DNA from: an uncultured Gammaproteobacteria bacterium
Lineage (GTDB): Bacteria > Patescibacteriota > Microgenomatia > Levybacterales > UBA12049
Assembly: GCA_964507055.1 (NCBI GenBank)
Contig: CAZDOJ010000001.1
Span: forward strand, 401,313 to 465,312
Direction: 5' to 3'
DNA length: 64,000 nucleotides
The position numbers and the translations under genes were made by a program. Below the pieces are notes generated by a model, which saw nothing but the letters and a program-made list of their open reading frames with translations, ran no database searches and was not told where the DNA came from. Shown here piece after piece: positions 17,960 to 38,479 of this stretch. Numbering within the stretch: position 1 is the first letter of the stretch; the number at the start of each line of letters is the position of its first letter.

Positions 17960-19720
17960 TTAATTGGAGGATAAAAGTTGTTTGATTGACTTATATCCCG
18001 CTCGTGGGAGCATATCTGTAGCGTATAGACCATCAATTCCGGGTAGAATACTACCACCGTCATCTTTCCAGAAGTTATATCGATCAGAAAGTATCCAAGT
18101 TCTCCAAGCAACACAATTTGATTCTTCGAGACAAGCTCGTAAAACTGCTGCGTATTGGTCTCCTTGAGCTTTTTCACCATCTCCACTATAGACATCCATT
18201 TCTGACACTTGTGAAATAAATCCAAGTTGCTTGAGTTGCTGCATATGATTTTTCAAAACTGTTGGATCAATTTTATCTTCTCTGTCATAAACATGTGCTT
18301 GGAAACCAACACCAATTTGATTTACTGGGATATTTCGTTCAACCAACTGTGGCTTTAATCGTGTCAATAATTCGACAAATGCATCCCATCTTTCTCCATC
18401 CTCTTCTAGACCAAATTCATTAATAAAAAGTGTAGCATTAGGATTTGTAGTATGTGCAACATCGAGTGCTTCGATGATATATTCCTCTCCCATTGCTTGA
18501 TACCATTTGTGGTTTCGTAAAATTTGTCCTTCTTCGAACTCATCGTAGTCAGCTAATGGTTCATTTACTACATCCCATGAATTAATCTTATTGCCAAAAT
18601 GTCCAACGACAGTTGCAATATGATCCTTCATTACGTCTTCGATAACTGCCTTTTCTTGAGGGGTAGTAACTGGGAGTTGATTGAACCACAACGGATTTGC
18701 TTCTCCAAAAACAAGCGTATGACCATGTACTTTTATGTTATTTTGTTCAGCAATTTGCACTAATGCATCTGCTTTTGCAAATGCATAAACACCTTGTTTT
18801 GGTTGAAGGTTTATCATCTTCATATCGTTTTCTGGTGTCATTCCACCGAAATCACTCAATGCAGCTTTTGCGTATTGTGGATCTGAGACGAGCGGACCTA
18901 ATGCTATTGCTGTTCCGAGTGTGAAGTTCGATCTTTTCTTTAATGCTAATTCTTGAAGTGTTTCATTTTCATTTCGTGCAACCTTTAATGTTGCCCCATT
19001 AGCAAGAACAAAAGAATTGTTTTTAAACTGAAGATCTTGTAGCTCCCATTCTTTATCTTGAGCGTCTAAACCAAACCAAATTTTGCCAGATTTAAAGATT
19101 CCAGGATCATTTGTTGTACCGATCTCCTTATCATTTACAATAAAGACAAACGTATTGGATTTTTTCTGTAGTGTAAACTCTACGGTATCCGCTGGGATAT
19201 ATTTAAATTCCCTTACTGCAATCGGATTTTGTGTTTTCCCATCCCATACTTTAACCACGATCGTACTTTTCGTAACAGCAATTTGCAAACTTTCGCGTTC
19301 TATCCTAAATTCATCAGCAATTATTGGAAGATTACCATAGAGTTGTATCGTTCCTGAAGCACTTGTTTTAAGATTTATTTTTGCTTGTAAGGAAAAATCA
19401 CCTTTTATGTTCTCAATATGTGTACCCGCAAAGTTAATTGGAGGATTTTTTTGCACAACACTTCCATCTTGATCAACTATTGCTAAATCCAAAGGTTGTA
19501 CAACTAATCCTGTTGCGTTTTTTTGCACACCAGGCATATATTCCCAATCTCCACGTAAGAGATTATCGTCATTTTTTACTGATTGTGTTTGGTAATTCAC
19601 AGTGGGACTTCCTTTCTTTTCAAATTGTGCGGTAATTATACCGGCTATTAAAAGAATAATTCCTGCAGTTAAGAGTAGGATGCGATATTTTGTATTATCG
19701 AGTTTTTGCTTCTTTTTCAT
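17960..19720 (-). CDS. membrane-anchored glycoside hydrolase family 10 (endo-beta-1,4-xylanase-like) with an N-terminal beta-sandwich domain
   Basis: N-terminal TM helix. The C-terminal (beta/alpha)8 region carries GH10 hallmarks WDVVNEP (acid/base) and ISQVSEMDV (nucleophile region, ITELD-like), plus HGHTLVF. Confidence 0.8.
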   Translation of the reverse strand: MKKKQKLDNTKYRILLLTAGIILLIAGIITAQFEKKGSPTVNYQTQSVKNDDNLLRGDWEYMPGVQKNATGLVVQPLDLAIVDQDGSVVQKNPPINFAGTHIENIKGDFSLQAKINLKTSASGTIQLYGNLPIIADEFRIERESLQIAVTKSTIVVKVWDGKTQNPIAVREFKYIPADTVEFTLQKKSNTFVFIVNDKEIGTTNDPGIFKSGKIWFGLDAQDKEWELQDLQFKNNSFVLANGATLKVARNENETLQELALKKRSNFTLGTAIALGPLVSDPQYAKAALSDFGGMTPENDMKMINLQPKQGVYAFAKADALVQIAEQNNIKVHGHTLVFGEANPLWFNQLPVTTPQEKAVIEDVMKDHIATVVGHFGNKINSWDVVNEPLADYDEFEEGQILRNHKWYQAMGEEYIIEALDVAHTTNPNATLFINEFGLEEDGERWDAFVELLTRLKPQLVERNIPVNQIGVGFQAHVYDREDKIDPTVLKNHMQQLKQLGFISQVSEMDVYSGDGEKAQGDQYAAVLRACLEESNCVAWRTWILSDRYNFWKDDGGSILPGIDGLYATDMLPRAGYKSIKQLLSSN

Positions 19721-19847: not shown

Positions 19848-20468
19848 TTATTTATTTTCAATACTTACAAGCTCTGCACGGACCATGTGTCTATAAATAT
19901 CATTTGGACCATCGCATGTAATAAGTGTTACTGATGGCTTCTTTGTGGGGTAAAATACATCGACTTGTGTTGGCTTCACAGTACTAAGTTGTGTAACTTT
20001 ATATGTAGCTTTATAGTTTTTTCCATAAAGAACGATTGTTGCACCTTTCTTTATATCTTTAATAGGAAGAAATGCATTTGCCTGTGCATGACCAAAGATA
20101 CCGACATTTCCATCTTGTTGGTTTACCAAACTTGTACCTTCAGCGTAATTTCCAACTGCATCATTGACTGCCCATGTGCCATTTTTCAGTGGCACTGAAA
20201 CAACTTTCTTATCCAATGTAATACTCTTAACAACTATTCGATCTGGTTTAAATCCTTTATTCTTTATTTCATCTTCCGTTATTTCAGTGCCACAATCTGC
20301 TGTGCAGGCATCTGACGTGTTATTCCACGACAAACTCTGCACCCATTCTGAAATGTTACTTCCATTGAAGAAATCATTCTTCAAAGAACCTAGCTGTATC
20401 AGTGAAGCTAGGACTGTCATCATAACGATGATAGTAAACGTGTTCAGTTTAATGCGTAAAACTTTCAT
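19848..20468 (-). CDS. sortase (transpeptidase), catalytic triad intact
   Basis: N-terminal TM anchor; conserved His (VGIFGHAQ), TLITC active-site Cys motif and downstream Arg (YRHMVRAEL). Confidence 0.8.
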   Translation of the reverse strand: MKVLRIKLNTFTIIVMMTVLASLIQLGSLKNDFFNGSNISEWVQSLSWNNTSDACTADCGTEITEDEIKNKGFKPDRIVVKSITLDKKVVSVPLKNGTWAVNDAVGNYAEGTSLVNQQDGNVGIFGHAQANAFLPIKDIKKGATIVLYGKNYKATYKVTQLSTVKPTQVDVFYPTKKPSVTLITCDGPNDIYRHMVRAELVSIENK

Positions 20469-20474: not shown

Positions 20475-20654
20475 TTATTTATTGAACATGTAACGTGTAA
20501 TGTGTCCAACTAACATAATAAGTAAAAGAGTGTTAACAACGACAAATCCAACTGCAACGAGTGGGTGTACTTTATCCGCAAGCATAAGACCTGCAGCTGA
20601 TGTAGCTGGTAATGTTGTTGCTGCTCCTACTAATCCTTTTCCATATTCGTTCAT
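20475..20654 (-). CDS. small (59 aa) membrane protein with a conserved LPATSAAG motif; IcaD/PgaD-position small subunit candidate
   Basis: RBS GGAGGTGAT lies 7 nt upstream of the ATG at 20654. Sequence: MNEYGKGLVGAATTLPATSAAGLMLADKVHPLVAVGFVVVNTLLLIMLVGHITRYMFNK. Its paralog is at 28130-28315. This ORF is absent from the supplied ORF track because it is under 60 aa. Confidence 0.6.
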   Translation of the reverse strand: MNEYGKGLVGAATTLPATSAAGLMLADKVHPLVAVGFVVVNTLLLIMLVGHITRYMFNK

Positions 20655-20682
20655 AATGTAATCACCTCCTTTGGTTCATAGA

Positions 20683-21981
20683 TTACCTGGTTCCCCAGGC
20701 TGTTGAATAACCAACTCTACGAAACGCAGAGTGGCCAAGCGAAATAATATAAGTAAGTGTCGAAAGTAAAAATTTAGTGATGAGATTATAGGAATAGAAT
20801 AGATATGAGCCAAAGAGAACTAGGCTTAAGAAGTTACTATAAATAAGTTCAGGTAAAATTGTAAGCTTAAGCATCCAATCTTTTTTGTCTCGATCAGCAT
20901 AAACACGCATCACAATAATGTTATAGATTGTAGATATCGCAAAACTTACCCATGCTAGAGCAATAAGTACAGGAATCATGCCTTGTGTCCGTGTATATGT
21001 ATCTGCGTAAACAAATGATAAACCGATCAAGACAAATAAACTTAAAAATGAAGCATGCCCAACAAAATCTTGGAAAACAGACGGAATCTGTCTCCAATAT
21101 TGTGCCAAAACATGTAATCCTCCACTTGTCCATCGAGCACGTTGCTTCCAAAGTGCTTCAACAGTTTCAGGGACTTCAGTCCATGCAATTGCTTTCTTAG
21201 CAATTTTTACTTCCCAACCTTTAATCTTTAATCTCGCAGTAATGTCATAGTCTTCAATTAAATGGCCTCTTGTAAAGCCATCAATAGCTTCAAGAACTTC
21301 CATTCTAAATGCAGTAAGCATTCCTTGCATAACAAGCGGACCTTTAAGGAATCCATTATCTGAGATCTTGGTGATATTAAACCCATGGTATTCGAGCCCT
21401 TGCAGACGAGTTACGATGTTTTTATTCTTATTACTAATTCGAACCTGTGAGCAGACAGCTCCGATGCGATAATTAGAGAATAAAGTATTTACCATACTCG
21501 GAATTGTGTCTTTATTAATGACCACATCATCATCAAATGTGAAGACCGCATCAGGCTTAATAGCCAGGGCTTGAAGATATTCGATACCATAATTTAAAGC
21601 TCCAGCCTTTAGCGTATTGGTTGGTGTTCGGAGTGAAACGACTTGAAGATTATTCTCAGCAAGCCAGTTGATTTTACTTAAAACAGGAGCAGTATCGACG
21701 TTAATTGGCGTACAATCATCGACAACAACCACAAGAACTTTAGGATGATATTTGACTATCGATTCAACAAGCTTTGCAGTCATGTCACTTGGACCATATG
21801 TAGGTATGATCACTGCTACATGCTTCTTAGAAAATACTGAGCGTATTGAAGTAGTTTGGGGCCTTTTAGGCACAAAGAAATAGCCCATCTGTGCGGCTGT
21901 TTCAGCTACTGAGTTGACTATATTTGTTCCACGCATAATACTATAAGTCATATTATAAACTATAAGCCTATGAAATGTCAA
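20683..21981 (-). CDS. processive family-2 glycosyltransferase (PgaC/IcaA/NodC/cellulose-synthase-like)
   Basis: DDCTP (DxD region), the QRARWTSGG (QxxRW) motif and C-terminal TM helices. Alternative starts are at 21951 and 21936. Confidence 0.8.
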   Translation of the reverse strand: MTFHRLIVYNMTYSIMRGTNIVNSVAETAAQMGYFFVPKRPQTTSIRSVFSKKHVAVIIPTYGPSDMTAKLVESIVKYHPKVLVVVVDDCTPINVDTAPVLSKINWLAENNLQVVSLRTPTNTLKAGALNYGIEYLQALAIKPDAVFTFDDDVVINKDTIPSMVNTLFSNYRIGAVCSQVRISNKNKNIVTRLQGLEYHGFNITKISDNGFLKGPLVMQGMLTAFRMEVLEAIDGFTRGHLIEDYDITARLKIKGWEVKIAKKAIAWTEVPETVEALWKQRARWTSGGLHVLAQYWRQIPSVFQDFVGHASFLSLFVLIGLSFVYADTYTRTQGMIPVLIALAWVSFAISTIYNIIVMRVYADRDKKDWMLKLTILPELIYSNFLSLVLFGSYLFYSYNLITKFLLSTLTYIISLGHSAFRRVGYSTAWGTR

Positions 21982-22084
21982 GTACTATGGGGCTAAATGA
22001 AGCAACCTATTCCTTCGGACAATACGAAAAGAACGTGGGAATTATGTATTAAAGAGGATTTATACCAAAACAATTAAGCTTGGC

Positions 22085-24430
22085 TTAGTTACTAAGGTTT
22101 ACAGAGTCTACGTACAAGTTGAATGTACTATTAGGTGTGGTGTAGTATTGCAATCGTACTTTATTTACATTCGCACTTGTTGGCTTGTATGTAAATGATT
22201 GTACTCCAGTTACTGGTCCAGTGATCATACCTTTCCACTGTCCTGAGAGCCATGTTCCTGCTGCATCGTATTCATCGATGTAGAACCCAAATTCACCTGT
22301 TCCAGTTAATGCACTTATGTATTGTGACCATGTGTATGTTGTTGCTGGGTTAACTGTGATCATACCTGTAAATGCGTGAGCATAAGCACTATTTGCAGCA
22401 ATCTTCAAACTATTAGTTCCAGCATTACCTTTTGAGGTCGTATCAACTGTAAAGTCTTGCGTATCTCGTGTCCAATTAGCTGCGAATCCACCTGTTACTG
22501 TTTCGAATCCACCGTTTACTACCAAGTTTGTTGTTGGTGCAGTCGAAGGTGTTGGTGTTACTGTTGGTGTTGCACTTGGTGTACTTGTAGGAGTACCAGT
22601 TGGTGTAACACTAGGTGTAGCAGATGGTGTTGCTGTTACCGTTGGAGTTACAGTAGTAGCTGCTGGGTTAGAAAGTGTGTAGTTATCAACTGTAGCACTT
22701 CCTGTTGCACCAGCAGTAAGGTATGTTTGGACTCGGATTGAATTAACCAATGTTGATGTTGCTTTGTAAGCTCGAGCAAATGTAGTTGTAACACCATTTG
22801 TTACTGCTCCGATCCATTGACCAGAAATCCAAGTTCCAGCTGCATTGTATTCATCGATGTAGAATCCAAGCTCGCCTGCTGTTAAGCCACCTGTATTTGC
22901 TACTGCACTGAAGTTATATGTAGCTGCTGTGTCGATTCCTGAAACAGTCTGGAATAAGTGAGTTGCTGTTGTTGTTCCATTAAATCGGATTGCTTGTGCT
23001 TGAACTGTTACGTTTGTTGCATTGTCAGTTGTCCAAGGTGTCAAACCATTTGTGAATGATCCATTAACAATAACATTGTTTGCTGCTGGAGTCGGAGTAA
23101 CACTTGGTGTGCCTGATGGTGTCGCTGTTGGAGTCACAACACTCGGTGTAGGTGTAACACTTGGTGCTCCATCAATATTGTTCAAGTTAACACTATCCAC
23201 ATATGCTGTTCCTGTAGCTCCACCTGTAAGATATGTTTGGATTCGAACTGAGTTAACCAATGTTGATGTTGCATTGTACAATTTAGTGAAGAATCCTATT
23301 GTACCGTTAGTGACCATACCCAACCATTGACCTGAGATCCAGTTACCGTTTGTGTCATATTCGTCGACGTAGAATCCAAGTTCACCAGAAGTCAAACCTG
23401 TTGCATTGTAGAATGCATCAAGAATATAACTTGAGTTAAATGAAACATTTGTTAAACCTGAGAATAAGTGAGTTGCTGAAGCTGCACCAGCCATACTAAC
23501 TGATTGTGTCGGTGAACCATAGTTACCGTGATTTGCATTGTCAGCTTTAACTGCAGCTGCATTATCTGTATTCCAACCATTTGCAAGTCCTGCTTCAAAT
23601 CCTGAATTCTGGATAACATTTGCTCCAGGAATAGTGATAGCTTTTTCGACTGATGTAACTTGGATTTGGCCTGCATTTACCTTTGTTTGGACATAGTTTG
23701 CCATTGTAGTAAGGTTTGCTGTTGTTACAGTGTATTCATATCCAGTGTTTGCTGTTGTAGATGTGTGATGAAAAACAAGGATTAACCACTGTTTGTTTGC
23801 GATTGCTTGATCAACCCATGCTTGTACTTGTGCGGGAGTTACATTCTGATTAACATCTTGTACTACTAAGATTGCTCTATTGTATGGTGCTGTATTTGCT
23901 CCAACATCTTGGAATGCTCGGTGAGATTTGTAGTATTTAAGGATTTCAGTAATAGTAGCGTTGTCATATGCACCAAATGGTGAAGCGAAATTAGTGACGT
24001 TTAAGCCATTTGCTTTGAAAGCTGTGTTTGACTGTGTTAATTGTGCTGCATTCTGTGTAGCTGTAATTGTTGGCATTTCAGGGTGATTAACAGTATGTCC
24101 ACCAATTTCCCATCCGTAGACATTTTGTAATTCTTTTACTTGTGCCCATGTAATTCCTGGGAGGTTATTATCAAGTGTCATTGTCCCATTAGGAACTCCT
24201 GATGAAAGATAAAGGACACCATCAATACCTCGTGCTTCAAGAATTGGAGCCGCGAGGGTTCGAGTTGATGCAAATCCATCATCGAAAGTAAATGAAACTT
24301 GTGCTTTATTAAGATCTGTGAGGTTAGCAATTTTAGCTGCTGATGCAACTGGAGCTTGTGCCAATACGAGTGCCGCCATCAATCCGAAAGCGGTCAAAGA
24401 CTTTACAACTTTGTTTACGAGTTTGTTCAT
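22085..24430 (-). CDS. secreted CE4 (NodB) polysaccharide deacetylase with three CBM4/9-like modules joined by Pro/Thr linkers
   Basis: Signal peptide. NodB motifs TFDDG, GGHTVNHPEM and SPFGAYD. Three modules begin N(L/V)(V/I)xN(G/S)GFE...W and contain GELGFYVDEYD(T/A)(N/A)GNWISGQW, separated by (P/T/S/V)-rich linkers. Confidence 0.85.
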   Translation of the reverse strand: MNKLVNKVVKSLTAFGLMAALVLAQAPVASAAKIANLTDLNKAQVSFTFDDGFASTRTLAAPILEARGIDGVLYLSSGVPNGTMTLDNNLPGITWAQVKELQNVYGWEIGGHTVNHPEMPTITATQNAAQLTQSNTAFKANGLNVTNFASPFGAYDNATITEILKYYKSHRAFQDVGANTAPYNRAILVVQDVNQNVTPAQVQAWVDQAIANKQWLILVFHHTSTTANTGYEYTVTTANLTTMANYVQTKVNAGQIQVTSVEKAITIPGANVIQNSGFEAGLANGWNTDNAAAVKADNANHGNYGSPTQSVSMAGAASATHLFSGLTNVSFNSSYILDAFYNATGLTSGELGFYVDEYDTNGNWISGQWLGMVTNGTIGFFTKLYNATSTLVNSVRIQTYLTGGATGTAYVDSVNLNNIDGAPSVTPTPSVVTPTATPSGTPSVTPTPAANNVIVNGSFTNGLTPWTTDNATNVTVQAQAIRFNGTTTATHLFQTVSGIDTAATYNFSAVANTGGLTAGELGFYIDEYNAAGTWISGQWIGAVTNGVTTTFARAYKATSTLVNSIRVQTYLTAGATGSATVDNYTLSNPAATTVTPTVTATPSATPSVTPTGTPTSTPSATPTVTPTPSTAPTTNLVVNGGFETVTGGFAANWTRDTQDFTVDTTSKGNAGTNSLKIAANSAYAHAFTGMITVNPATTYTWSQYISALTGTGEFGFYIDEYDAAGTWLSGQWKGMITGPVTGVQSFTYKPTSANVNKVRLQYYTTPNSTFNLYVDSVNLSN

Positions 24431-24490
24431 AATTGAAATTGGACAGTTTCATAGTGAGCAGATTACATCTTTTTATATAGATGAGAATCG

Positions 24491-24522
24491 GATAATATCA
24501 CATGTATCCAAAGTGTGTCAAC
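24491..24522 (-). promoter_or_regulatory. sigma70-like promoter (TTGACA-18-TATTAT) for the first CE4 deacetylase gene
   Basis: Minus-strand sequence GTTGACACACTTTGGATACATGTGATATTATCCG, upstream of the start at 24430. Confidence 0.4.
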
Positions 24523-24561
24523 AGTTAATGCCACAGAGAACTGAAAATTGAGGAGATTTTC

Positions 24562-27411
24562 TTAGTTACTAAGACTTACGGAGTCAACGTACAAGTTAAA
24601 TGTACTACTAGGTGTTGTGTAATATTGCAATCTAACTTGACTTACAGCTGTACTTGTTGGAACATATTGGAATGATTGGATACCAGTTGTCGGTCCAGTA
24701 ATCATACCTTTCCATTGTCCTGAAATCCAATTACCTGCTGTATCGTATTCATCGATATAGAACCCGAATTCACCTGTTCCTGTCAATGCACTTACAAATT
24801 GTGACCAAATGTATGTCGTTCCTGGAGTAACTGTGATGAAGTCACTAAATGCGTGTGAGCCAGTAGTACTTGCAAGAACTTGCAAACTGTTTGTACCTTC
24901 ATTTCCTTTTGAAGTAGTATCAATTGCAAAATCAGCTGTATCATGAGTCCAGTTGGCTGCGAAATCACCACTTACTGTTTCAAATCCACCATTTGTTACC
25001 AAGTTTGTTGCTGGTACACCTGTTGGTGTAGGAGTTACACTCGGTGTTTCAGTAGGTGTTGGTGTCACACTTGGTGTACTTGTCGGTTCAACAGTTGGAG
25101 TTACAGTTGGCACATTTGTAGGTTCTGGTGTTACACTTGGTGCATTTTCGTCAGCAATACTGATATTATCAACTGTAGCAGTACCTGTTGATCCCGCTGT
25201 AAGGAATGCATGAACTCGGATTGAGTTTACAAGGTTTGTTGACGCTGTGTATACTCTACTAATATTGTTTACAGCACCTCGCATGAAGCCCCAGAATTGA
25301 ACTGAAACCCAGTTACCGTTTGCATCATATTCATCGACATAATATCCGAGATCACCTGATGTCAAACCAGTTGTGTCAAAGTTTGCACTGACAATGTATC
25401 GAGCTGTGTTATCAAAGTTGTTAATGTGTTGATAAAGATATACTTGTCCAGCCATACCAGTCAACTTTGCTGTACCATTTTCAGCTGCAACGTGTTGTGT
25501 ATCAGTTGTACTCCATGAAGCCAAGCCACTATCAAATCCACTGTTTGCAACGATGTTACCAGCTACAGGTGTAGGTGTAACACTTGGTGTTGTTGTAGGA
25601 ACAACTGTAGGTGTTGGCGTTACATTTGCACCATTTTCATTTGCAATACTTACGTTATCAACTTTTGCTGTTCCTGTAGTTCCAGGAGTCAAGAATACGT
25701 GTACTCGGATAGATTGTACAAGATTTGTTGATGCTGTATAGACTCTATTGATACTGTTAATGCCGCCTCGCATGAAGCCCCAGAACTGTACTGAAACCCA
25801 GTTACCGTTTGCATCATATTCGTCGACGTAGTATCCAAGATCACCTGATGTCAAACCAGTTGTGTCAAAGTTTGCACTGACAATGTATCGAGCTGTGTTA
25901 TCAAAGTTAGTAATATGTTGATACAAATACATTTGTGCTGCATTACCAGTCATTGTGATTCCACCGCTTTCAGCAACGATATGTGTTGTATCAGTTGTAC
26001 TCCATGAAGCCAAACCGCTATCAAATCCACCGTTAACAACGATATTACCAGCTGCAGGTGTAGTTGTAGGAGTAACTGTTGGAGTTACACTTGGTGTACC
26101 TGTAGGCGTAACAGTTGGTGTTGTTGTAGGAGTTGGTGCAGGTGTACCATCCAAGTTATACACTTGAACACTATCAACATATGCTGTACCTGTTGCACCT
26201 GCTGTGAGGTATACTTGAACACGAATTGTGTTAACAAGTGTTGATGTTGCATTGTAAAGCTTGGTAAAGAAGCCTATTGTACCGTTAGTAGCCATACCCA
26301 TCCATTGTCCTGCGAGCCAAGTACCATTTACATCATATTCATCAACATAGAATCCAAGTTCGCCAGATGTTAAGTTTAATGAATTAACGAAAGCATCAAT
26401 AACATAACTTGAATTGTATGACACTTGTGCACCGGTATAGAAAAGATGCGCTTCAGTTGCTGTACCTGTTAAACTTACAGACTGCGTCGGTGAGCCATAA
26501 TTACCGTGATCTGCATTATCAGCTTTGATACTGTTGGCATTATCTGTTGTCCAACCATTGGCAATCCCCGCTTCGAAACCTGAATTTTGGAGAACATTTG
26601 TTCCTGGAATTGTGATTCCTTGTTCGGTTGTAACAACTTGAATTTGACCTGCTGCAACTTTGGTTTGCACATAATTTGCCATTGTAGTAAGGTTTGCTGT
26701 TGTTACTGTGTATTCATAGTTTGGATTCTTTGCTACAGCGGTATCATGGAATACGAGGATCAACCATCGCTTTTCAGTAATTGCCTGATCAACCCATGCT
26801 TGAACTTGTGCAGTTGTAGTCGCATCGTTTACATCTTGAACCATTAATATGTCTTTATGATAAGGTTGACTATTCAAAGCATCTCGATCTGCAAAACCAC
26901 GATGAGATTTGTATAATTTCAAGATTTCAGTCAAAGTCATATTGTCATATGCACCAAATGGTGAAGCGAAGTTCGTGACATTCAATCCGTTTGCTTTAAA
27001 TGCTGCATTTGAATTGGTAAGTTCGGCAACATTTTGTGCTTGTGTAATAGTAGGCATTTCAGCATGGTCTACAGTGTGTCCACCGATTTCCCATCCAAAA
27101 TCATTTTGGAGTTCTCGTACTTGATCCCATGTAATTCCTGGTTGGTTATCATCTAATGTAGCTGTACCATCTGGAACTCCTGATGTTAAATAAAGAACAC
27201 CATCGATACCTCGTGCTTCGAGAATTGGTGCGGCAAGTGTTCGGGTTGATGCAAATCCATCATCAAATGTGAATGAAACTCGTGGAGTATCAAGGTCAGA
27301 AATACTTGTTAAACGTGCAGCGTCAGCAAGAGGTGCTTGTGCCAGGAAGAAAACCGCACTCAAAAAGATTGCGGTTAAAGTTCGTACTATTTTGTTTGTT
27401 AATTTATTCAT
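24562..27411 (-). CDS. secreted CE4 (NodB) polysaccharide deacetylase with four CBM4/9-like modules (paralog of 22085-24430)
   Basis: Same architecture as its neighbour: TFDDG, GGHTVDHAEM, SPFGAYD; four modules with NGGF(D/E)SGLASW...GDLGYYVDEYDANGNWVS and PT linkers. The start is at the ATG at 27411 (MNKLTNKIVRTL signal peptide); the raw ORF runs to 27459. Confidence 0.85.
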   Translation of the reverse strand: MNKLTNKIVRTLTAIFLSAVFFLAQAPLADAARLTSISDLDTPRVSFTFDDGFASTRTLAAPILEARGIDGVLYLTSGVPDGTATLDDNQPGITWDQVRELQNDFGWEIGGHTVDHAEMPTITQAQNVAELTNSNAAFKANGLNVTNFASPFGAYDNMTLTEILKLYKSHRGFADRDALNSQPYHKDILMVQDVNDATTTAQVQAWVDQAITEKRWLILVFHDTAVAKNPNYEYTVTTANLTTMANYVQTKVAAGQIQVVTTEQGITIPGTNVLQNSGFEAGIANGWTTDNANSIKADNADHGNYGSPTQSVSLTGTATEAHLFYTGAQVSYNSSYVIDAFVNSLNLTSGELGFYVDEYDVNGTWLAGQWMGMATNGTIGFFTKLYNATSTLVNTIRVQVYLTAGATGTAYVDSVQVYNLDGTPAPTPTTTPTVTPTGTPSVTPTVTPTTTPAAGNIVVNGGFDSGLASWSTTDTTHIVAESGGITMTGNAAQMYLYQHITNFDNTARYIVSANFDTTGLTSGDLGYYVDEYDANGNWVSVQFWGFMRGGINSINRVYTASTNLVQSIRVHVFLTPGTTGTAKVDNVSIANENGANVTPTPTVVPTTTPSVTPTPVAGNIVANSGFDSGLASWSTTDTQHVAAENGTAKLTGMAGQVYLYQHINNFDNTARYIVSANFDTTGLTSGDLGYYVDEYDANGNWVSVQFWGFMRGAVNNISRVYTASTNLVNSIRVHAFLTAGSTGTATVDNISIADENAPSVTPEPTNVPTVTPTVEPTSTPSVTPTPTETPSVTPTPTGVPATNLVTNGGFETVSGDFAANWTHDTADFAIDTTSKGNEGTNSLQVLASTTGSHAFSDFITVTPGTTYIWSQFVSALTGTGEFGFYIDEYDTAGNWISGQWKGMITGPTTGIQSFQYVPTSTAVSQVRLQYYTTPSSTFNLYVDSVSLSN

Positions 27412-27459
27412 AATAAAATTTGAACAATTTATGTAATATTCAATTTTAATGAGACTCAT

Positions 27460-27492
27460 AGTATCATTAAATTAATCTTTTGTCAAGTCTAT
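27460..27492 (-). promoter_or_regulatory. sigma70-like promoter (TTGACA-17-TACTAT) for the second deacetylase gene
   Basis: Minus-strand sequence CTTGACAAAAGATTAATTTAATGATACTATGAG, upstream of the start at 27411. Confidence 0.4.
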
Positions 27493-27528
27493 AGGATAAC
27501 TCATAGTTATAAAATTGTAATGCTAATT

Positions 27529-28113
27529 TTAGTTAGCTGCTTCTATCTTTACTAACTCTGCTTTTACAATATGCTGTTTGTTAGAAAAGATTTCATCTGA
27601 CGTAACGAGTGTCAAAATAGGTGTTTTTGTTGGAGCAAAAACATTTGTATCAGTTGCAAGTGCATCCCGTGAAGAAGTCACTTTATATGTTGCTTTCTGG
27701 CCATTACCATAGACGATAATTGCAGCGTCATTATCTAATTGTTGGATTCGAGTGAATCCGTCCAATCGATCATTAGCAAATAGTCCAACATTTCCTTCTT
27801 GTGCATTAACCAAACTTGTACCTTCAGCAAAGTTTGCAACATGTGGAAGAACTTCCCAAGTTCCATCTTTCAATGGAACAGAAAATATTGGGAGATCAAT
27901 CTCTACAGATGATATAACTACTCTTTCAGGAGTGAATGCCGAAAGTGTTTTTACAGGTGTAATAGTAGGAGTAACTGGTGTGACAGGAGTTGCAGTTAAT
28001 TCTTGTGAGTTTGCAACAGTAGCAGAGAGCCCATTACCTAACGAACTGAGCTGAAAGATACTAGCGAATGCCGCCAAGACAAATATAGTTGTATAAATAC
28101 TAACTTTTTTCAT
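27529..28113 (-). CDS. sortase-fold paralog with substituted catalytic His, Cys and Arg (pseudo-sortase)
   Basis: Aligned to the 19848-20468 sortase it keeps the fold (EGTSLVN, NVGLF, KATYKVT, TLVT) but has FGH->FAN, TLITC->TLVTS and RxxVRAEL->KQHIVKAEL. It retains an N-terminal TM segment and a PT-rich linker. Confidence 0.7.
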   Translation of the reverse strand: MKKVSIYTTIFVLAAFASIFQLSSLGNGLSATVANSQELTATPVTPVTPTITPVKTLSAFTPERVVISSVEIDLPIFSVPLKDGTWEVLPHVANFAEGTSLVNAQEGNVGLFANDRLDGFTRIQQLDNDAAIIVYGNGQKATYKVTSSRDALATDTNVFAPTKTPILTLVTSDEIFSNKQHIVKAELVKIEAAN

Positions 28114-28129
28114 ATTATTATTAATTTAA

Positions 28130-28315
28130 TTATTTAGTACGATTTACTAAATAACGACTGATTTGACCTGCTAAGATAACAAGCCATACGACATTAAGTA
28201 CTATAAAACCTGCTAATACTATTGGGTTACTAAAGTCAGCAAAAAATGCTCCTGCTGCTGAAGTAGCCGGTAATACCGCTGCGCCTAATACTTGTCCTTT
28301 TCCGTAATCTGTCAT
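28130..28315 (-). CDS. small (61 aa) membrane protein with the LPATSAAG motif (paralog of 20475-20654)
   Basis: RBS AAAGGAGAAACT upstream of the ATG at 28315. Sequence: MTDYGKGQVLGAAVLPATSAAGAFFADFSNPIVLAGFIVLNVVWLVILAGQISRYLVNRTK. The raw ORF 28130-28471 carries an artifactual N-terminal extension that overlaps the GT2 gene. Confidence 0.6.
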   Translation of the reverse strand: MTDYGKGQVLGAAVLPATSAAGAFFADFSNPIVLAGFIVLNVVWLVILAGQISRYLVNRTK

Positions 28316-28328
28316 AGTTTCTCCTTTC

Positions 28329-29591
28329 TTAGTTTTTTGTTCCCCACTTTGTTGAGAATCCTGCCTTATTAAAGGCTGCGAGTCCCCAATTATATGGAGC
28401 ATTGAATAAAGATATTTTATTTGCGATGGGTTTAAAGATTTTGTTGTATACGATGAACAAATATGAGCCAAGTAAAATAAGACTCAATAAGTTACTGTAA
28501 ATAAGTTCAGGAAGAACTGTTAATTTCATCGCCCAATCTTTCTTATCACTGTCTTCGTAAAGTGCCAATGAAACGACATTGAAAATGAACGCAACTAAGA
28601 AGTTGAATAATGAAAGTCCAAATAAGATAAGCACTGTTTCAGGTTCACTCTTTCCTGTTCGAACAAAGAAGAATGAAAGGACAATCAATCCGAAAAGACT
28701 TAAGAAAAGAATATGACCGATAAGGTCTTGGTAGACGACATCAAATTTCTTCCAGAATTCTCCCAATACATGCAATCCACCACTTACCCATCGAACACGT
28801 TGTTTCCAAAGTGCTTCGATGGTTTCAGGAACTGTTGTCCATGCGATTGCTTTTTGTGCAATCTTTACATTCCAGCCTTCACTCTTCAATCGTGCAGTAA
28901 TGTCATAATCTTCAATTAAATGACCTTTGGTAAAACCATTGATTTCTTGAATTGCATCTGTTCTAAAAGCAGTCAACATACCATGCATAACAAGTGGTCC
29001 TTTTAAGAAACCGTTATCTGCAATCTTTGTAATGTTAAAGTTGTGATACTCAAGTGCTTGCAAACGCGTAAGGAAGTTTTTGTTCTTGTTAATGACACGA
29101 ACTTCTGAACAAACTGCACCGATTGTTTCATCAGAATATAATGTTGCAATCATTTTCGTTACAGTCTTTTTAGTAATAATGACATCATCATCAAAAGTGA
29201 AAATTACATCTGGTTTGGTATTAAGACTTAATACATATTCAATACCATGGTTTAATGCACCAGCTTTTAATTCATTCTTTGGAGTTCTCAAATATGCCAT
29301 GTTGTTATGTTCATTTGCGAGATCTTTAATCTTGTTCAAAATTCTAAGATTTTTTTCTGTTTCTGGAGTACAATCATCAATAACTACAAGGATAGCTTCT
29401 GGGTGCCATTCAAGAATAGACTTTATAAGATTATGGGTCATTTCAGATGGAGTGTGAGTTGGAACAAGAATTGCTGGAAGTTTACTATGTACAATAGCCT
29501 CATTTATTTCAATTCTTTCTTTTTTTGGAGCAAAGAAATGCACGGAGTTCTCCGCAATTACTTTGAATGTATTTCTTGGTTTTCTGTTCAT
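28329..29591 (-). CDS. processive family-2 glycosyltransferase (paralog of 20683-21981)
   Basis: VVIDDCTP, QRVRWVSGG and C-terminal TM helices; the catalytic core is similar to the 20683 protein. Confidence 0.85.
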   Translation of the reverse strand: MNRKPRNTFKVIAENSVHFFAPKKERIEINEAIVHSKLPAILVPTHTPSEMTHNLIKSILEWHPEAILVVIDDCTPETEKNLRILNKIKDLANEHNNMAYLRTPKNELKAGALNHGIEYVLSLNTKPDVIFTFDDDVIITKKTVTKMIATLYSDETIGAVCSEVRVINKNKNFLTRLQALEYHNFNITKIADNGFLKGPLVMHGMLTAFRTDAIQEINGFTKGHLIEDYDITARLKSEGWNVKIAQKAIAWTTVPETIEALWKQRVRWVSGGLHVLGEFWKKFDVVYQDLIGHILFLSLFGLIVLSFFFVRTGKSEPETVLILFGLSLFNFLVAFIFNVVSLALYEDSDKKDWAMKLTVLPELIYSNLLSLILLGSYLFIVYNKIFKPIANKISLFNAPYNWGLAAFNKAGFSTKWGTKN

Positions 29592-29646: not shown

Positions 29647-31089
29647 TTATGATGTTCGTTGCCGTCTATGGTTTTCTTGGACCAATGTGAACTTTCCTAC
29701 ACCACTGTCATCATATGCATTCATAAGCTGAATATGTGCCTCTGGATAGAATTGAGCCAAAGTATCTAAAACTTTTCTTTGAACCAGCATATTACCTTGA
29801 ATTACTCCTCCTGCAACGGGAAATGGTAAATGACCTTTACCGTCATATCCGCCCTGATGTAATGTAGCGGCTATCATAAGTCCCATAACCTGTCCAGCCT
29901 GTTCATATGCACGGTAGGTTATACCTTCAACCAGTTCCCGCTCTTGCGGTTCAAGCTTGAAATAAAGTCTATCGTAAAAGAGTTCAGCTGATTTAGGATC
30001 ACTTGGTCTACGAGGTCCATCAAAAAAATTGAATTTTTTCGTTTGCAAATATGTATTAATATCACGAAGATTTTCTGTACGTATAAGATTTGGATCATTT
30101 TCTGTCAGAAGCGAAACTGCACCAACCATCCTTTGTCTAATTCGGTCTCCTCCAGTAAGGTATTTTAAGGCATTTCCCAAAGGCATCTTTCCATTTTTTG
30201 TCATGTATTCTTGTAAAAGATTTCCAGGTAAGATATCTGTATATGAACTAATATCCAACGTCTCTCCATGTAATTCTGCACTTGTTCCAGTCCCTCCGAT
30301 AAAGCTTACTGGCACAGGATCACCATGAGCATCCCAATCTGAAACATCATTACCAGTCGCAATCGTATCATGGAGGAAGTAAACACGCTCCACACCAAGT
30401 CCATTAGCTTGTAAATGACTAATAAGTGCAGGACCAAGAGCTGGCTGTACTTCAGCAGGAACTTCTAAATCTATATCTGTAAGGTTCCAATTAGAAGGCT
30501 TTCCATTTGGACGAGCATCGATGCCATGATCTTCAACAGTATTTAAAATAGGAAAACCTAGAGATACCCCCATTGCTTTAACATGTTGATAATCCTCTTT
30601 GCGATGGTGTACTTCATCAAACCCTCCAAGTAAGTGATCACCAATCGCTTCTGCCAAACCATGTACTGTCATTGTTCTTGATTCTGTGTCTTTTGGAATA
30701 CGGTGGTGACTAAATGTTTCTCCTAGGAATCTGCCTGATTCTTTTGTAATTATTCCTGAACGCTGATTCGTTCCTCCCCATAAAGCCACGAATGCCTGTT
30801 CATCTACAGGAACTTCTGCTAAATCTCTCCATGTAATTCTTGGAATATCAAGGGCTGGTGATTTTTCTCGCGTATCGAGAGCTGCTGTAAGTGTTGCAAA
30901 AGCACGAGATAGTTCATCGGATGTATAAGGACGCAAGCCAATTTTGTCCAAACGTGTCCCCACTTCCCTTTCAGGCAACAAAGTAGATTCATGTTTTAAA
31001 ACATGGCTCAGTTTACGCGTCAATAGCATGGGTGGAAATTCACCCAATACCGATACATTAGAAAAATTTGGTCGAACAAATTCTGCCAT
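29647..31089 (-). CDS. hexokinase-family sugar kinase (putative)
   Basis: FVALWGGTNQRSG resembles the hexokinase phosphate-1 motif (DLGGTNFR). The length (480 aa) and a second glycine-rich motif FIGGTGTSAE also fit. Local GC (~43%) is higher than the flanks. Confidence 0.45.
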   Translation of the reverse strand: MAEFVRPNFSNVSVLGEFPPMLLTRKLSHVLKHESTLLPEREVGTRLDKIGLRPYTSDELSRAFATLTAALDTREKSPALDIPRITWRDLAEVPVDEQAFVALWGGTNQRSGIITKESGRFLGETFSHHRIPKDTESRTMTVHGLAEAIGDHLLGGFDEVHHRKEDYQHVKAMGVSLGFPILNTVEDHGIDARPNGKPSNWNLTDIDLEVPAEVQPALGPALISHLQANGLGVERVYFLHDTIATGNDVSDWDAHGDPVPVSFIGGTGTSAELHGETLDISSYTDILPGNLLQEYMTKNGKMPLGNALKYLTGGDRIRQRMVGAVSLLTENDPNLIRTENLRDINTYLQTKKFNFFDGPRRPSDPKSAELFYDRLYFKLEPQERELVEGITYRAYEQAGQVMGLMIAATLHQGGYDGKGHLPFPVAGGVIQGNMLVQRKVLDTLAQFYPEAHIQLMNAYDDSGVGKFTLVQENHRRQRTS

Positions 31090-34113: not shown

Positions 34114-34860
34114 TTAAATATTTTTAACATTTGAGTAGAGCTCGTTTGCCGCCTGGACGTCTTCTTGGGTTGAAATACCCATGAACTCGATACTGTTCTC
34201 AAGAAGGAAAGTACCTACCTTTTTCTCGTTTTCTAGTGCCATATTGATAAGATCTGTTAAGTAATATTCACCAGTAACTTCAGACGGGACAACTTGTCCG
34301 ATATTTTCTTCAAAGAATTTACGATCGAAGATATAAACCCCATCATTCACTTCATTCACTTTCTTTTCACGAATAGTTGCATCTTTTTCTTCAACAATTT
34401 TTTGGAAGTTCCCTGCTTTATCATAGATAACTCGTCCAAATCCTGTTGGATTCTTTTTTAACAAAGTAATGAATGTGATTGTGTTGTTATCTTTCTTGTG
34501 CTTTGCAAGAACATCTTTAAAAGTTTTTGGTTCATAAAACATACTATCATCACCATTCACGATCATAACTGTATCGATTTCTGGATTAAGAACTGGAAGA
34601 CATGCTTCAGCTGCTTTAGCTGTTCCATAGGCTTCACCTTGATATGCGATATCTGCAAATGGTTTTGCAACGGGAGCAACTAATTCTGCTTGATGTTTTA
34701 CAACTGTGATGAGTTGAGAAAGCTTAATTGAAGTAAGTGTACGCAAAGACATAACGAGAAGTGGCTCGCCATTTACCAAATGCAAAACTTTCGGTAAGTC
34801 TGATTTCATGCGGCTGCCTCGACCTGCGGCCAAAACAACTGCTGCAACTTTATTCTTCAT
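34114..34860 (-). CDS. sugar-1-phosphate nucleotidyltransferase (GlmU-N/RmlA-like)
   Basis: N-terminal AAVVLAAGRGSRMKSDLPKVL (G-x-G-T/R-R-x signature) and a ~250-aa nucleotidyltransferase fold, with no acetyltransferase hexapeptide domain. Confidence 0.8.
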   Translation of the reverse strand: MKNKVAAVVLAAGRGSRMKSDLPKVLHLVNGEPLLVMSLRTLTSIKLSQLITVVKHQAELVAPVAKPFADIAYQGEAYGTAKAAEACLPVLNPEIDTVMIVNGDDSMFYEPKTFKDVLAKHKKDNNTITFITLLKKNPTGFGRVIYDKAGNFQKIVEEKDATIREKKVNEVNDGVYIFDRKFFEENIGQVVPSEVTGEYYLTDLINMALENEKKVGTFLLENSIEFMGISTQEDVQAANELYSNVKNI

Positions 34861-35836: not shown

Positions 35837-38476
35837 TTATTTCTTCGTCTTTAAGTTGGCATCAACCCACAGATTTGGTAAATCATTATTATAAAGAGCA
35901 GTTCCAAACCATGCCCAATTCTGTGTGTAATAACTCTTTGAATCTTCCCAATAACTTCCATCTTTATCTTCATAAAGCTTGTTAAGTACTTTGGTTTCGT
36001 AGATTTCTTTTGCAGCAGATTTATCTGTGACAACAAAGCTTGCGAGGTTTGCAGCATATGCACCAGCGGATTCATAATCTTCCCATGGTTTCCCATCATG
36101 TGTGTATGCAACACTGATCTTTTTATTATTTGCCCATTCTTTTCGCAGAAAGTCATTCTTTGTAAGATAGGACTTTGCTCGAGGTTCTTTGAACCATTGA
36201 TAGTCCAAAGCAATTCTCCATGGTGTACGGAAAGCGTCATAACTATATTCTGTTGAATCCAAACCTTTCTCTGGAGATTTAATAATTTTTCCACTACTAT
36301 CAACTGCACACCAATTTGGTGCAAGTCCAGCTGAAGTTTCTTTGTCTAAGTCGCTATCAGTACATGCATTCAAAACTTCATACGATGTGTCGACCAAACT
36401 CAACCAATTATGGGTTTTATCAATCTCAGCAAAAATCCTGTAACTACTTGGTGCGAGATATGATGGATTGATGATTGCTGTTGATTTTGGCTTCGCCCAA
36501 TCCCCTGCTACGAGATATGGTTTGCTTCGAACTACTTTTACTTCATTCTCCCAGATTGCTTGCATAATCGTCCGTGAATCGATGATGTAACCTGGATTAT
36601 TCCAACGCTTTCCAGCAAAAGCCAATGCTAAGGCAATATCTTCATCACCATCTGCAGCAGAACTTTTATCAATGATTCCCATTGTGCCATCTGGCTTCTT
36701 TCCCCATTTCCAAGCAATCAAATTGTTATCCTTTTGCATATTTCTTTTAGTGAATCCCCATGTCTTATCGAAGAGTTGTTTATCGTTCATCCATACTGCT
36801 CGTAACATGGTATATGATTGTCCTTCTGATGTTGTAGTATTATTTGCTGGATCGACAGTATCTCCATCATCTTTTACAAATGTATTTTTGTATGTTTCCC
36901 ATGTTGAGACAAGAATTCTTCGAGAATTCTTTACGGCCCAGATCTGGACGTACCAACCATCACCTGCGAAACTCGTAATCGGATTTGATTGTGCTAACGC
37001 ATTTCCCGTCATCGGAATTTCACCAGTTCCTAAGTCTCCGCCAATAAGTGGTGTAAATAAGACATAATCAATATTGTTGTAATCATTTTTTAATATCTTT
37101 TCTTTAATATCTTTGTCTCCATCCACTTTCCAATAATATTCAGCATTGGCGAAGTTGCCGTTATTTCTATAGTTCAAATCAAGATATGCATAGTTATCAA
37201 TCGCATAGAATGCATTTGGAGATTGTTTACTCAAAATCCAATTAACAGCTTCTATCTGAGCATTGGTTTCGTTGGATGTGTAGATATTGAAATTACCTGA
37301 ACGGACATTGCCTGAATAATTAAATACAAGTACTCCCATATATATAATGAATGCCATAATAGGAAAAATCGCATAAATTTGAAGCGGCCAGAATTTCATC
37401 CTTGTAAAGAAACTCGCAATTTTATGTGTGACGTACGCAGTTGTTAAAGCAACAAGCGGCACAAGCGGAATGATATAGAATTCAAGTACCAATCCTCCTC
37501 TTAGTAAGAACGCCCAATAAGAAATCGCAAGTCCTGCAATGATACGAGCAGCTACGCTTCTGATAGCAAATATCATTGTAATAATTGTAGATATTGCACC
37601 AACGATCATGAATGACGGATCATCATTTTTCCAGTTCCCTGTCATTTCCCAGAAACTTGAGCCAGGATTGAAGATACTGACGTTTCCGCGACTACCCTGG
37701 AATTGCAGTGTACCAAGTAAACTTACGTGCTCATTATTTCCTCCCAAAAGTGTTCCCGATGGGAAAAATTCGCCTTTAAACATACTAAATATAAAGTACA
37801 GTGAAATAATTGCTCCTGCTACTGCAATCCATTTAATTGCACCAAATAATCGATTGATCTTATGCAATTGAGAATACACAAGAACAGCCATAAATGGGAG
37901 AAAGAAAATCGCACTTTCTTTACTCAGGACTGCGATTCCAAAACTCACCGCACTGGCAATAATCCATCGCAATCTTTGTTTACTAAAGAGTACAAATGTC
38001 ACAGAAAGCAGAAGCCAAAATACCATTATGTTATCCAGCAATACACGTCGTTGGAAATAAATGGCCAGTGGCGAGAGTGAGAACATAAGCACAGCAAATG
38101 CTCCCACAAGCTTAGATCCGGTTATCTTCTTACCAATAAAATACAGTAATAATGCTGATCCGATATGGAGGAGCAGCATCAGTACACGACCAGAGTTAAT
38201 AGCAAACCCAAAGGTAAAAAGACCCCCGGTTATTTTTAACCATAAAGCAATGAGCATCCAACCTACAGGAGCATGATCATACCAATATGTGTACGGTGCA
38301 AGTTTTCCATCATTGATGATCGCCCATGCTTGAGACATGTACGTACCTTCATCAGATTCATAATATGGATAGCCCAACATGTTATATCCATGAGAAATAG
38401 CAGCAATTGCCAAAAGGCCGAATACCAAAAGATATTCCATTTTATGACTAGTAAATAATTCTTTTATCTTTTTCAT
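35837..38476 (-). CDS. fusion of a GT-C (PMT/ArnT-like, GT39/83) membrane glycosyltransferase with a C-terminal glycoside hydrolase family 8-like domain
   Basis: N-terminal half: multiple TM helices with the YYESDEGTY (DE loop) motif and HAPVGW. C-terminal ~400 aa: TTSEGQSYTM (GH8 SEGQSYGM-like) and AADGDEDIALALAFAGKRW (close to the GH8 signature A-[ST]-D-[AG]-D-x2-[IM]-A...). Confidence 0.7.
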   Translation of the reverse strand: MKKIKELFTSHKMEYLLVFGLLAIAAISHGYNMLGYPYYESDEGTYMSQAWAIINDGKLAPYTYWYDHAPVGWMLIALWLKITGGLFTFGFAINSGRVLMLLLHIGSALLLYFIGKKITGSKLVGAFAVLMFSLSPLAIYFQRRVLLDNIMVFWLLLSVTFVLFSKQRLRWIIASAVSFGIAVLSKESAIFFLPFMAVLVYSQLHKINRLFGAIKWIAVAGAIISLYFIFSMFKGEFFPSGTLLGGNNEHVSLLGTLQFQGSRGNVSIFNPGSSFWEMTGNWKNDDPSFMIVGAISTIITMIFAIRSVAARIIAGLAISYWAFLLRGGLVLEFYIIPLVPLVALTTAYVTHKIASFFTRMKFWPLQIYAIFPIMAFIIYMGVLVFNYSGNVRSGNFNIYTSNETNAQIEAVNWILSKQSPNAFYAIDNYAYLDLNYRNNGNFANAEYYWKVDGDKDIKEKILKNDYNNIDYVLFTPLIGGDLGTGEIPMTGNALAQSNPITSFAGDGWYVQIWAVKNSRRILVSTWETYKNTFVKDDGDTVDPANNTTTSEGQSYTMLRAVWMNDKQLFDKTWGFTKRNMQKDNNLIAWKWGKKPDGTMGIIDKSSAADGDEDIALALAFAGKRWNNPGYIIDSRTIMQAIWENEVKVVRSKPYLVAGDWAKPKSTAIINPSYLAPSSYRIFAEIDKTHNWLSLVDTSYEVLNACTDSDLDKETSAGLAPNWCAVDSSGKIIKSPEKGLDSTEYSYDAFRTPWRIALDYQWFKEPRAKSYLTKNDFLRKEWANNKKISVAYTHDGKPWEDYESAGAYAANLASFVVTDKSAAKEIYETKVLNKLYEDKDGSYWEDSKSYYTQNWAWFGTALYNNDLPNLWVDANLKTKK

Positions 38477-38479
38477 AGT

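Follow-up and report, generated by a model that had tools for sequence, protein, structure and literature searches.

On the minus strand of the 64,000-nucleotide (nt) stretch of contig CAZDOJ010000001.1 analysed here (hereafter the window), genes for a family-2 glycosyltransferase (GT2), for a membrane peptide of about 60 amino acids (aa) and for a protein with a sortase fold form a unit that has been tandemly duplicated, giving cassettes B and A. The two peptide genes, pepA and pepB, are real. Their products belong to what appears, from comparison of sequences, to be an undescribed family built of two modules: a transmembrane (TM) helix with a basic tail that would partner the synthase, and an outward-facing LPxT motif that a dedicated sortase would recognise, as substrate or as ligand. 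The balance of the evidence tips, though not far, towards this reading.

Two short genes between synthase and sortase

The original prediction, made from the letters of the window alone, had placed two paralogous membrane peptides of about 60 aa between GT2 and sortase-fold genes, and this is where they lie (Table 1). As it had also recognised, neither appears at its proper size in the list of open reading frames (ORFs) that accompanied the window: pepA, at 59 aa, falls under a 60-aa cut-off, and pepB is masked by a TTG-started ORF of 113 aa (28130-28471) that overlaps the 3' end of the upstream GT2 gene, GT2b. Both products possess the (M)xxYGKG and LPATSAAG motifs, a single hydrophobic helix and a basic tail, and they align with 30 identities over 59 positions (51%; BLASTP E = 5e-22). 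Strong Shine-Dalgarno sites can be read directly upstream of each ATG: AGGAGGTGAT at 20670-20661, 6 nt before that of pepA, and AAGGAG at 28326-28321, 5 nt before that of pepB. Similar sites of the GGAGG type are found 5-10 nt 5' of the start in 19 of the 21 homologues checked.

Homologues are not confined to the window. A profile made from the PepA/PepB pair identified 27 proteins of 57-63 aa with the same pattern, plus one 86-aa ORF call, in a word-indexed profile search, and a full HMMER scan of 1.84 billion representatives returned 48 clusters (formed at 50% identity) at E <= 1e-3, nearly all of them 50-86 aa in length. The family is known so far only from Patescibacteria-type contigs. The TypA protein encoded in the window shares 90% identity with one from 'Candidatus Levyibacteriota' and 82% with one labelled 'Patescibacteria group', which makes the host a Levybacteria-type member of the candidate phyla radiation. 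When the locus itself was searched for with the pepA/pepB pair, only one related genome, OZ246394.1, came up; it is the source of two of the loci referred to below by L numbers, L006 and L007. Measured against orthologues, the ratio of non-synonymous to synonymous substitution rates (dN/dS) is 0.07-0.17 for pepA and 0.08-0.15 for pepB.

Short frames of this kind might be no more than non-coding spacers left open by accident between the GT2 and sortase genes, and the peptides are indeed short and anonymous. Neither belongs to a Pfam or NCBIfam family, the sole match at E <= 0.01 being a spurious one to CrcB (0.008); the source names in the protein collection offer nothing, and the identical copy of PepB held in public protein collections is nameless. 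Conservation refutes this explanation: the similarity of the paralogues, the 48 clusters, the low dN/dS values and the conserved ribosome-binding sites leave it a probability next to nil.

Anatomy of the peptide family

The consensus of the family runs M-[TN]-[DE]-Y-G-[KR]-G-x-[VI]-L-G-A-A-T-x-L-P-A-T-[SATG]-[AG], followed by some ten residues, a proline (P31), the TM helix and a terminal I-S-R-[YF]-x-x-N-[RK]. The helix comprises 22 uncharged residues with an Asn or Ser near its middle. Column counts from 50 sequences single out two conserved regions, one at either end of the peptide: L15 and P16 (46/50 each) and T18 (43/50) in the first, R54 and [YF]55 (49/50 each) and N58 (48/50) in the second. 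The LPATS motif is therefore conserved well beyond the duplication in which it was first noticed; 42 of the 50 members have LPxT, and the residue after the Thr, which would be P1' of a cleavage site, is invariably small (Ser in 21, Ala in 13, Thr in 8 and Gly in 3).

The segment of 30 residues ahead of the helix carries on average 1.06 Lys or Arg against 1.48 Asp or Glu, whilst the ten-residue C-terminal tail carries 3.3 against 0.14. From the positive-inside rule we infer that the N-terminus lies outside the cell and the C-terminus inside, and with this topology the LPxT motif, about 12 residues ahead of the membrane helix, would face the same compartment as does the catalytic domain of a sortase anchored by its N-terminus. 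In PepA and PepB only 14 residues precede LPATS, with neither a Sec signal peptide nor a folded passenger domain.

A single clade of synthases accompanies the peptide

Wherever a contig holds sequence upstream of the peptide gene, a GT2 gene is found directly 5' of it, often overlapping by 1-4 nt or separated by a short gap. (The count omits L019 and L026, where the contig starts immediately ahead of the peptide, and L016, where it starts within the sortase gene and no peptide is seen.) These GT2s make up one clade, 46-84% identical to GT2a of the window, with L030 at 51%, L029 at 41% and the L028 fragment at 40%, whereas other GT2s on the same contigs reach at most 28% identity to GT2a and have no peptide. 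The association is kept in L014, L015 and L029, three loci without a sortase on the contig.

The two synthases of the window, GT2b and GT2a, are 54% identical. Direct reading shows the D, D, D, QxxRW signature of processive synthases (as DDC, DDD, ED and QRxRW in GT2b); both match PF13641 and PF00535, and GT2b also PF13632. A TM scan finds no N-terminal helix and three, perhaps four, C-terminal ones. Sequence relatives in the PDB are hyaluronan and chitin synthases, and the best NCBIfam match of GT2b is the equivalog PgaC_IcaA (TIGR03937), at 125.6 bits under a cut-off of 422. An AlphaFold2 (AF2) model of GT2a, built on an alignment of two sequences only, has a pLDDT of 46.8. The conserved neighbourhood of CE4 deacetylase and GH10 glycanase genes suggests that the polymer made is an acetylated beta-glycan.

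A dedicated subfamily of sortases

On the other side of the peptide gene, each of the 11 distinct LPxT loci reached via the peptide has a sortase-fold gene 2-19 nt 3'. The reverse search, with a sortase profile in metagenome data, led to 12 loci, and the peptide is present in each of the 11 with upstream sequence. The cassette sortases form a bounded subfamily of 81 clusters scoring 159-312 bits, the next match dropping to 73 bits; one member is labelled Patescibacteria. Against PF04203 (cut-off 26.6 bits) the cassette-A sortase scores 67.4 bits (E = 1e-18) and the pseudo-sortase of cassette B 48.4 bits (E = 9e-13), and the cassette-A enzyme has its His, Cys and Arg in the motifs GH.., TLITC and YRHMV respectively.

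The cassette sortases stay far below the cut-offs of the NCBIfam models for classes C, D, E, F and GN, the best being class E at 39.6 against 160 bits, and no class A model was among the NCBIfam matches listed; the generic sortase_fam model, TIGR01076, is missed just barely by the cassette-A sortase (38.8 against 39.35 bits). Judged by these scores, the cassette sortases are a clade outside the curated classes. In a Foldseek search an AF2 model of a family sortase gave its best TM-scores to streptococcal class A enzymes, with class C equal by E-value. Among the matches is PDB 7s4o, and they include the complex of S. pyogenes SrtA with LPATS, a substrate of that enzyme defined by crystallography (PMC9520033).

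Two further features of the sortases deserve mention. The N-terminal TM helix (in the window 20468-20380, minus strand) has an invariant Ser22 and Gln25 in the pattern A-S-x-x-Q-L-x-x-L across 10 aligned members, and these residues, together with the mid-helix Asn or Ser of the peptide, could support pairing of the two helices. Elsewhere in the window, at 52619-53797 on the plus strand, a 210-aa protein ending in LAPTG, a TM helix and RKSK is followed by a 177-aa sortase (53264-53797; PF04203 E = 1e-22), a conventional pair of sortase and substrate with a class-E-like LAxTG motif. As this substrate has a sortase of its own, the cassette sortases are not the sole sortases of the genome. The CE4, GH10, GT2 and sortase proteins were also considered as other sortase substrates and rejected, none having an LPxT[GSA] signal with a tail.

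If the peptide were merely a helper of the GT2 in the manner of IcaD or PgaD, its likeness to LPATS being meaningless and the neighbouring sortase serving LPXTG proteins encoded elsewhere, then its obligate adjacency to the GT2, even in loci without a sortase, would be accounted for, as would a TM helix and RYxxN tail conserved beyond the needs of a disposable sorting signal. Such a helper has no reason to be followed by a sortase gene in every locus with the motif, nor to turn up in 11 out of 11 loci reached from the sortase, nor to vary in its motif with the state of the sortase (see below), and the one classical LAPTG substrate in the window has its separate enzyme. We regard this explanation as decidedly unlikely.

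A second alternative makes the peptide itself the product: the sortase would polymerise or cyclise the N-terminal 18-mer, through Lys6 or the N-terminal amine, into a mini-pilin or something resembling a ribosomally synthesised and post-translationally modified peptide, with the GT2 glycosylating or exporting it. The YGKG of the peptide has a superficial likeness to the YPKN pilin motif and the N-terminal segment is conserved, but the same segment occurs in loci without a sortase, and the class C model, with its cut-off of 160 bits, gives the cassette sortases only 35 and 20. We consider it very improbable. A pilin-like Lys6 nucleophile was rejected outright, position 6 being Lys in only 19 of 50 members and otherwise Arg (12), Thr (5) or Gln (3) amongst the commoner residues.

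The motif varies with the state of the sortase

The loci can be arranged in four grades. In the first, comprising 15 distinct loci with an intact sortase adjacent (including L013, with the triad YCR, and L024, where the contig ends within the sortase), LPxT is present throughout. In the second, the adjacent sortase is dead but an intact paralogue is encoded within 3-12 kb; here belong cassette B of the window, L007 and L008/L009, all of which strictly retain LPATS. The third grade has a dead sortase and no intact one in view, and the Thr is lost whilst Leu and Pro are kept: L030 and L031 (Asp/Tyr/Arg in place of the triad) have LPAAS, and L028 (Asp/Ala/Gln), where peptide and sortase are fused in one ORF, has LPASG. 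In the fourth grade no frame of the contig encodes a sortase, and the motif has either suffered a five-residue deletion (L014 and L015) or reads LPAVS (L029); these peptides still follow a GT2 and still have the TM helix and SRY..N tail. Altogether, all 18 distinct loci that have an intact sortase nearby keep the Thr, and none of the five without one does; P0057 (LPAAS) and P0070 (motif deleted) are outside this count. It had been predicted that the motif is conserved even beside a dead sortase: this stands for the three loci that also have an intact paralogue and fails for the two lineages with a dead sortase only. The pattern is suggestive of Thr retention following the presence of an intact sortase nearby.

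Some details of the third grade can be added. The LPAAS peptide and its Asp/Tyr/Arg sortase occupy 6001-6781 of L030 and 5088-5868 of L031, in loci complete with genes for a hexokinase-like protein, an NTP-transferase, CE4 and GH10, and no second sortase was seen in the 8.8-kb contig of L031 or in the part of the L030 contig that was read (9.4 of 11.9 kb). The fusion in L028 (P0067; 379-1260) is a 293-aa ORF consisting of the LPASG peptide, a basic cytoplasmic loop and the dead sortase, a topology consistent with a TM hairpin; it comes from one 2.3-kb contig only, and a sequencing frameshift is possible.

Dead sortases do not look like relics. The pseudo-sortase of the window and its equally dead orthologue in L007 give a dN/dS of 0.11, within a range of 0.11-0.25 for dead sortases that compares with 0.16-0.21 for intact members of the family, and by this measure the dead sortases are under purifying selection and not decaying.

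Selection on dead enzymes is what would be expected if LPxT were only a docking ligand, an uncleaved tag by which the complex of GT2 and peptide recruits a sortase-fold protein, active or dead, as a scaffold, which might for instance hold the secreted CE4 deacetylases close to the synthase exit. The persistence of Leu and Pro beside dead sortases that have lost the Thr partner (LPAAS in L030, LPASG in L028) is in keeping with this idea, as are the fusion of peptide and dead sortase in L028 and the fact that sortase and CE4 are either both present or both absent in the loci seen. Docking alone, however, leaves unexplained the complete His-Cys-Arg triad of most family sortases, and it sits poorly with a scissile Thr that is strictly kept only where the enzyme is intact, with small P1' residues typical of a cleavage site and with an AF2 model of the fusion in which the motif is not docked. 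We think it unlikely.

The likeness of LPATS, helix and basic tail to a miniature sortase sorting signal, raised in the original prediction, has gained by all this: LPxT, a small P1' residue, the TM helix and the basic tail are conserved together, a sortase is the next gene, and the Thr tracks the intact enzyme.

A possible mechanism

On the two-module reading, the TM helix and the cytoplasmic R-[Y/F]-x-x-N-[R/K] tail would be the fixed partner of one GT2 synthase clade, beside which they are retained in the absence of any sortase, and would probably be a stoichiometric accessory subunit in the role that IcaD and PgaD have for IcaA and PgaC. The second module, the external N-terminal segment of about 30 residues with its LPxT[S/A/T/G], would act as a cell-wall sorting signal in miniature, recognised by the sortase of the next gene. 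An intact sortase would be expected to cut between Thr18 and Ser19, within ...GAATTLPATSAAG... / GAATTLPATSAAGL, to hold the 18-residue N-terminal piece as a thioester and to transfer it to an amine, leaving the TM fragment from S19 to the C-terminus with the synthase. In cassette B the sortase-fold protein would be a selected pseudoenzyme that has probably retained binding of the LP motif, and any catalysis on PepB would have to come from the cassette-A sortase, 8 kb off. What the comparison shows directly is that the genes are real, form a family, keep their synteny and their motif, and vary in the Thr with the activity of the sortase; peptide topology, cleavage site and subunit role alike we infer.

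Peptidoglycan is the default acceptor of sortases, and peptidoglycan or lipid II is our tentative first choice here, if short of an even chance. Free amines on a polymer deacetylated by the CE4 enzymes would be a doubtful second, water (that is, processing only) is unlikely, and any other acceptor is a little more so; all four suggestions are speculative.

A bolder proposal, and one that we think rather less likely than not, is that the sortase acts on a synthase subunit in such a way that transfer of the peptide is mechanically coupled to export of the glycan. In one variant, the LPxT peptide, tethered to the synthase, would be ligated to amines of the nascent polymer as these are unmasked by the CE4 deacetylases. 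In another, a polymer linked to the peptide would be shifted from a membrane anchor (in loci without a sortase) to the cell wall (in loci with one), much as lipoteichoic acids compare with wall teichoic acids. In that case pseudo-sortases would have arisen as proteins that read the LP motif without catalysis. The G-x-[VI]-L-G segment near the N-terminus persists in variants without a sortase and so presumably serves the synthase complex in its own right, beyond being cargo, which in turn leaves room for a model in which the N-terminal segment holds the polymer and the sortase moves it from membrane to wall.

Several observations weigh against a sorting signal processed by its neighbour. That same G-x-[VI]-L-G segment is kept where there is no sortase, and the TM helix and tail, unlike those of classical sorting signals, are strongly conserved. 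The 'cargo' amounts to about 14 residues and lacks a Sec signal peptide. When the P0067 fusion was modelled with AF2 on a 31-sequence alignment, the LPAS region had a pLDDT below 50, and docking of the motif was not supported. Searches of Pfam and NCBIfam gave no similarity of the peptide to IcaD or PgaD. Losses of the motif come from roughly four independent lineages, and in three of these the contig measures 1.8-2.7 kb, so that the co-variation of Thr and sortase, in counts not corrected for phylogeny, is suggestive and not proven, and an intact sortase could lie off the contig in the loci concerned. Lastly, cleavage, an acceptor and a complex of GT2 and peptide are proposals drawn from comparison of sequences.

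Layout of the locus and neighbouring genes

Table 1. Genes of the duplicated cassette and its surroundings, in order along the minus strand of the window
Feature	Position	Strand	Description
Upstream gene, possible sugar kinase	29647..31089	-	480 aa; 34% identity over 439 aa to a 453-aa protein of L030
GT2b	28329..29591	-	420 aa; membrane-embedded processive family-2 glycosyltransferase of cassette B
pepB	28130..28315	-	61-aa small membrane protein: MTDYGKGQVLGAAVLPATSAAG, TM helix, ISRYLVNRTK
Pseudo-sortase	27529..28113	-	194 aa; N-terminal TM anchor and sortase fold, Asn/Ser/Gln replacing His/Cys/Arg; cassette B
CE4 polysaccharide deacetylase 1, secreted	24562..27459	-	965-aa ORF; probable true start 27411; PF01522 E = 7e-15
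CE4 deacetylase 2, secreted	22085..24430	-	781 aa; paralogue of CE4 1; PF01522 E = 3e-14
GT2a	20683..21981	-	432-aa ORF; synthase of cassette A
pepA	20475..20654	-	59-aa small membrane protein: MNEYGKGLVGAATTLPATSAAG, TM helix, ITRYMFNK
Dedicated sortase	19848..20468	-	206 aa; N-terminal TM anchor, intact His-Cys-Arg triad; cassette A
GH10 glycanase, membrane-anchored	17960..19720	-	586 aa; PF00331 E = 2e-65; end of locus

Directly 5' of both GT2 genes are perfect (12/12) TTGACA-N17/18-TATAAT sites, at 29628-29600 and 21981-21952 on the minus strand, and weaker promoter-like sites matching at 10-11 of the 12 positions, with TG, precede each CE4 gene. Since the second perfect site covers the TTG start of GT2a, the true start of this gene is probably one of two ATGs further inside it, at 21936 or 21888. 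The arrangement of the promoter-like sites suggests that GT2-peptide-sortase and CE4 are separate transcription units. Overall, a scan of the window for promoters and terminators showed no enrichment over shuffled sequence, the two perfect sites 5' of the GT2 genes being its only noteworthy result, and an Rfam search of the window gave no match.

The first CE4 protein has weak matches to HfsH and NTTRR-F1, a signal peptide and tandem beta-rich repeats on Pro/Thr linkers; the signal peptide of the second ends in ...APVASA, before AK. In both (22085-27459, minus strand) three or four tandem beta-rich modules of about 150-190 aa, with the pattern N-x-V-x-N-G-[GS]-F-[ED] ... Y-[VI]-D-E-Y-D and weak matches to NTTRR-F1, are set between Pro/Thr linkers and are probably uncharacterised carbohydrate-binding modules. 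A sequence search of the PDB with the 965-aa protein gave no match. A GH10 gene stands beside the cassette on other contigs also (L001, L008/L009 and L031).

Searches of Pfam, NCBIfam and the PDB with the 480-aa upstream protein gave no match of its own, but its 453-aa relative in L030 has a weak match to Hexokinase_2; together with an NTP-transferase encoded at 34114-34860, the upstream protein may serve in precursor supply. Further away, the region 35837-45270 encodes unusual fusions of glycan enzymes: a PMT-type GT-C glycosyltransferase joined to GH8 (879 aa), a double GT2 (741 aa) and a GT2-GT2-GT4 protein (1376 aa). The PMT-GH8 fusion, the NTP-transferase and an uncharacterised protein of about 345-400 aa are encoded upstream of the cassette in L008/L009 and L030 as well. 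Between 56000 and 64000 the GC content of the window falls from 0.36-0.40 to 0.28-0.30, and this part may have been acquired laterally.

Implications

Sortases attach folded surface proteins and pili to the Gram-positive wall. We know of no use of a sortase in the synthase-dependent exopolysaccharide systems (ica, pga, bcs and pel). In the locus described here the small subunit of a glycan synthase would itself bear a sorting signal, in an operon that also encodes a dedicated sortase and CE4 deacetylases, and this arrangement of genes is conserved across divergent genomes of the candidate phyla radiation (CPR) of the Levybacteria type. Were the proposed cleavage to prove true, it would link the chemistry of protein sorting with the export or anchoring of polysaccharides, in bacteria whose envelope is almost unstudied. 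Should coupling to export be true as well, it would amount to a novel mode of exopolysaccharide anchoring or decoration, and to the first case of a sortase integrated in biosynthetic machinery.

Whatever the mechanism, the loci grade naturally from an intact sortase through a pseudo-sortase to none at all, the motif changing in step, and should be useful for studying the origins of pseudoenzymes. The peptides also illustrate how a conserved gene family of about 60 aa can be hidden by ORF-length cut-offs or by longer overlapping ORFs.

Comparison with known systems

In the literature searched, neither this peptide family nor a synthase subunit with a sortase motif was found to be described; a preprint on CPR pili concerns an unrelated matter. 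The comparison with IcaD and PgaD made in the original prediction stands as far as placement goes: a small integral membrane protein is encoded right after a processive GT2, often overlapping it, with CE4 in the same operon, and the order GT2, small TM protein, CE4 is that of icaA-icaD-icaB. It does not extend to the proteins themselves, as the peptide family has no detectable similarity to either in sequence and has one TM helix, whereas IcaD and PgaD have two predicted TM helices. The synthase of the locus likewise differs from IcaA and PgaC in having no N-terminal TM helices and in scoring 125 bits where 422 are required. To our knowledge, IcaD and PgaD contain no sortase motif, and the ica and pga loci encode no sortase.

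LPXTG signals served by a dedicated sortase, such as IsdC with SrtB or the LPXTA and LPXTS signals of streptococcal SrtA, resemble the peptide in having LPxT with a small residue, a helix, a basic tail and an adjacent sortase. They differ in that the peptide is little more than the signal itself, with a 'cargo' of about 14 residues and no Sec signal peptide, in that its helix and tail are conserved in sequence and tied to another enzyme, and in that some of the partner sortases are pseudoenzymes.

The nearest conceptual parallel is the PEP-CTERM/exosortase (EpsH) system, whose sorting transpeptidase shows a genomic correlation with exopolysaccharide loci and whose signal consists of a motif, a TM helix and a basic stretch (PMC1569441). 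Exosortases are polytopic and unrelated to the sortase fold, however, the PEP motif is itself unrelated, and the system handles many diverse cargo proteins with signal peptides, in diderm hosts, its targets not being subunits of a synthase. For an acceptor amine on a polymer, were that to be the case here, there is a precedent in PorU of the type IX secretion system, which joins the C-terminus of a cleaved protein to an amine on a polysaccharide, anionic lipopolysaccharide (PMC4560394), although PorU is not a sortase homologue, acts at the outer membrane of Bacteroidota and involves no synthase subunit. Set against these systems, the locus would appear to combine two known kinds of component in one small protein, the accessory subunit of a synthase and the substrate of a sortase.

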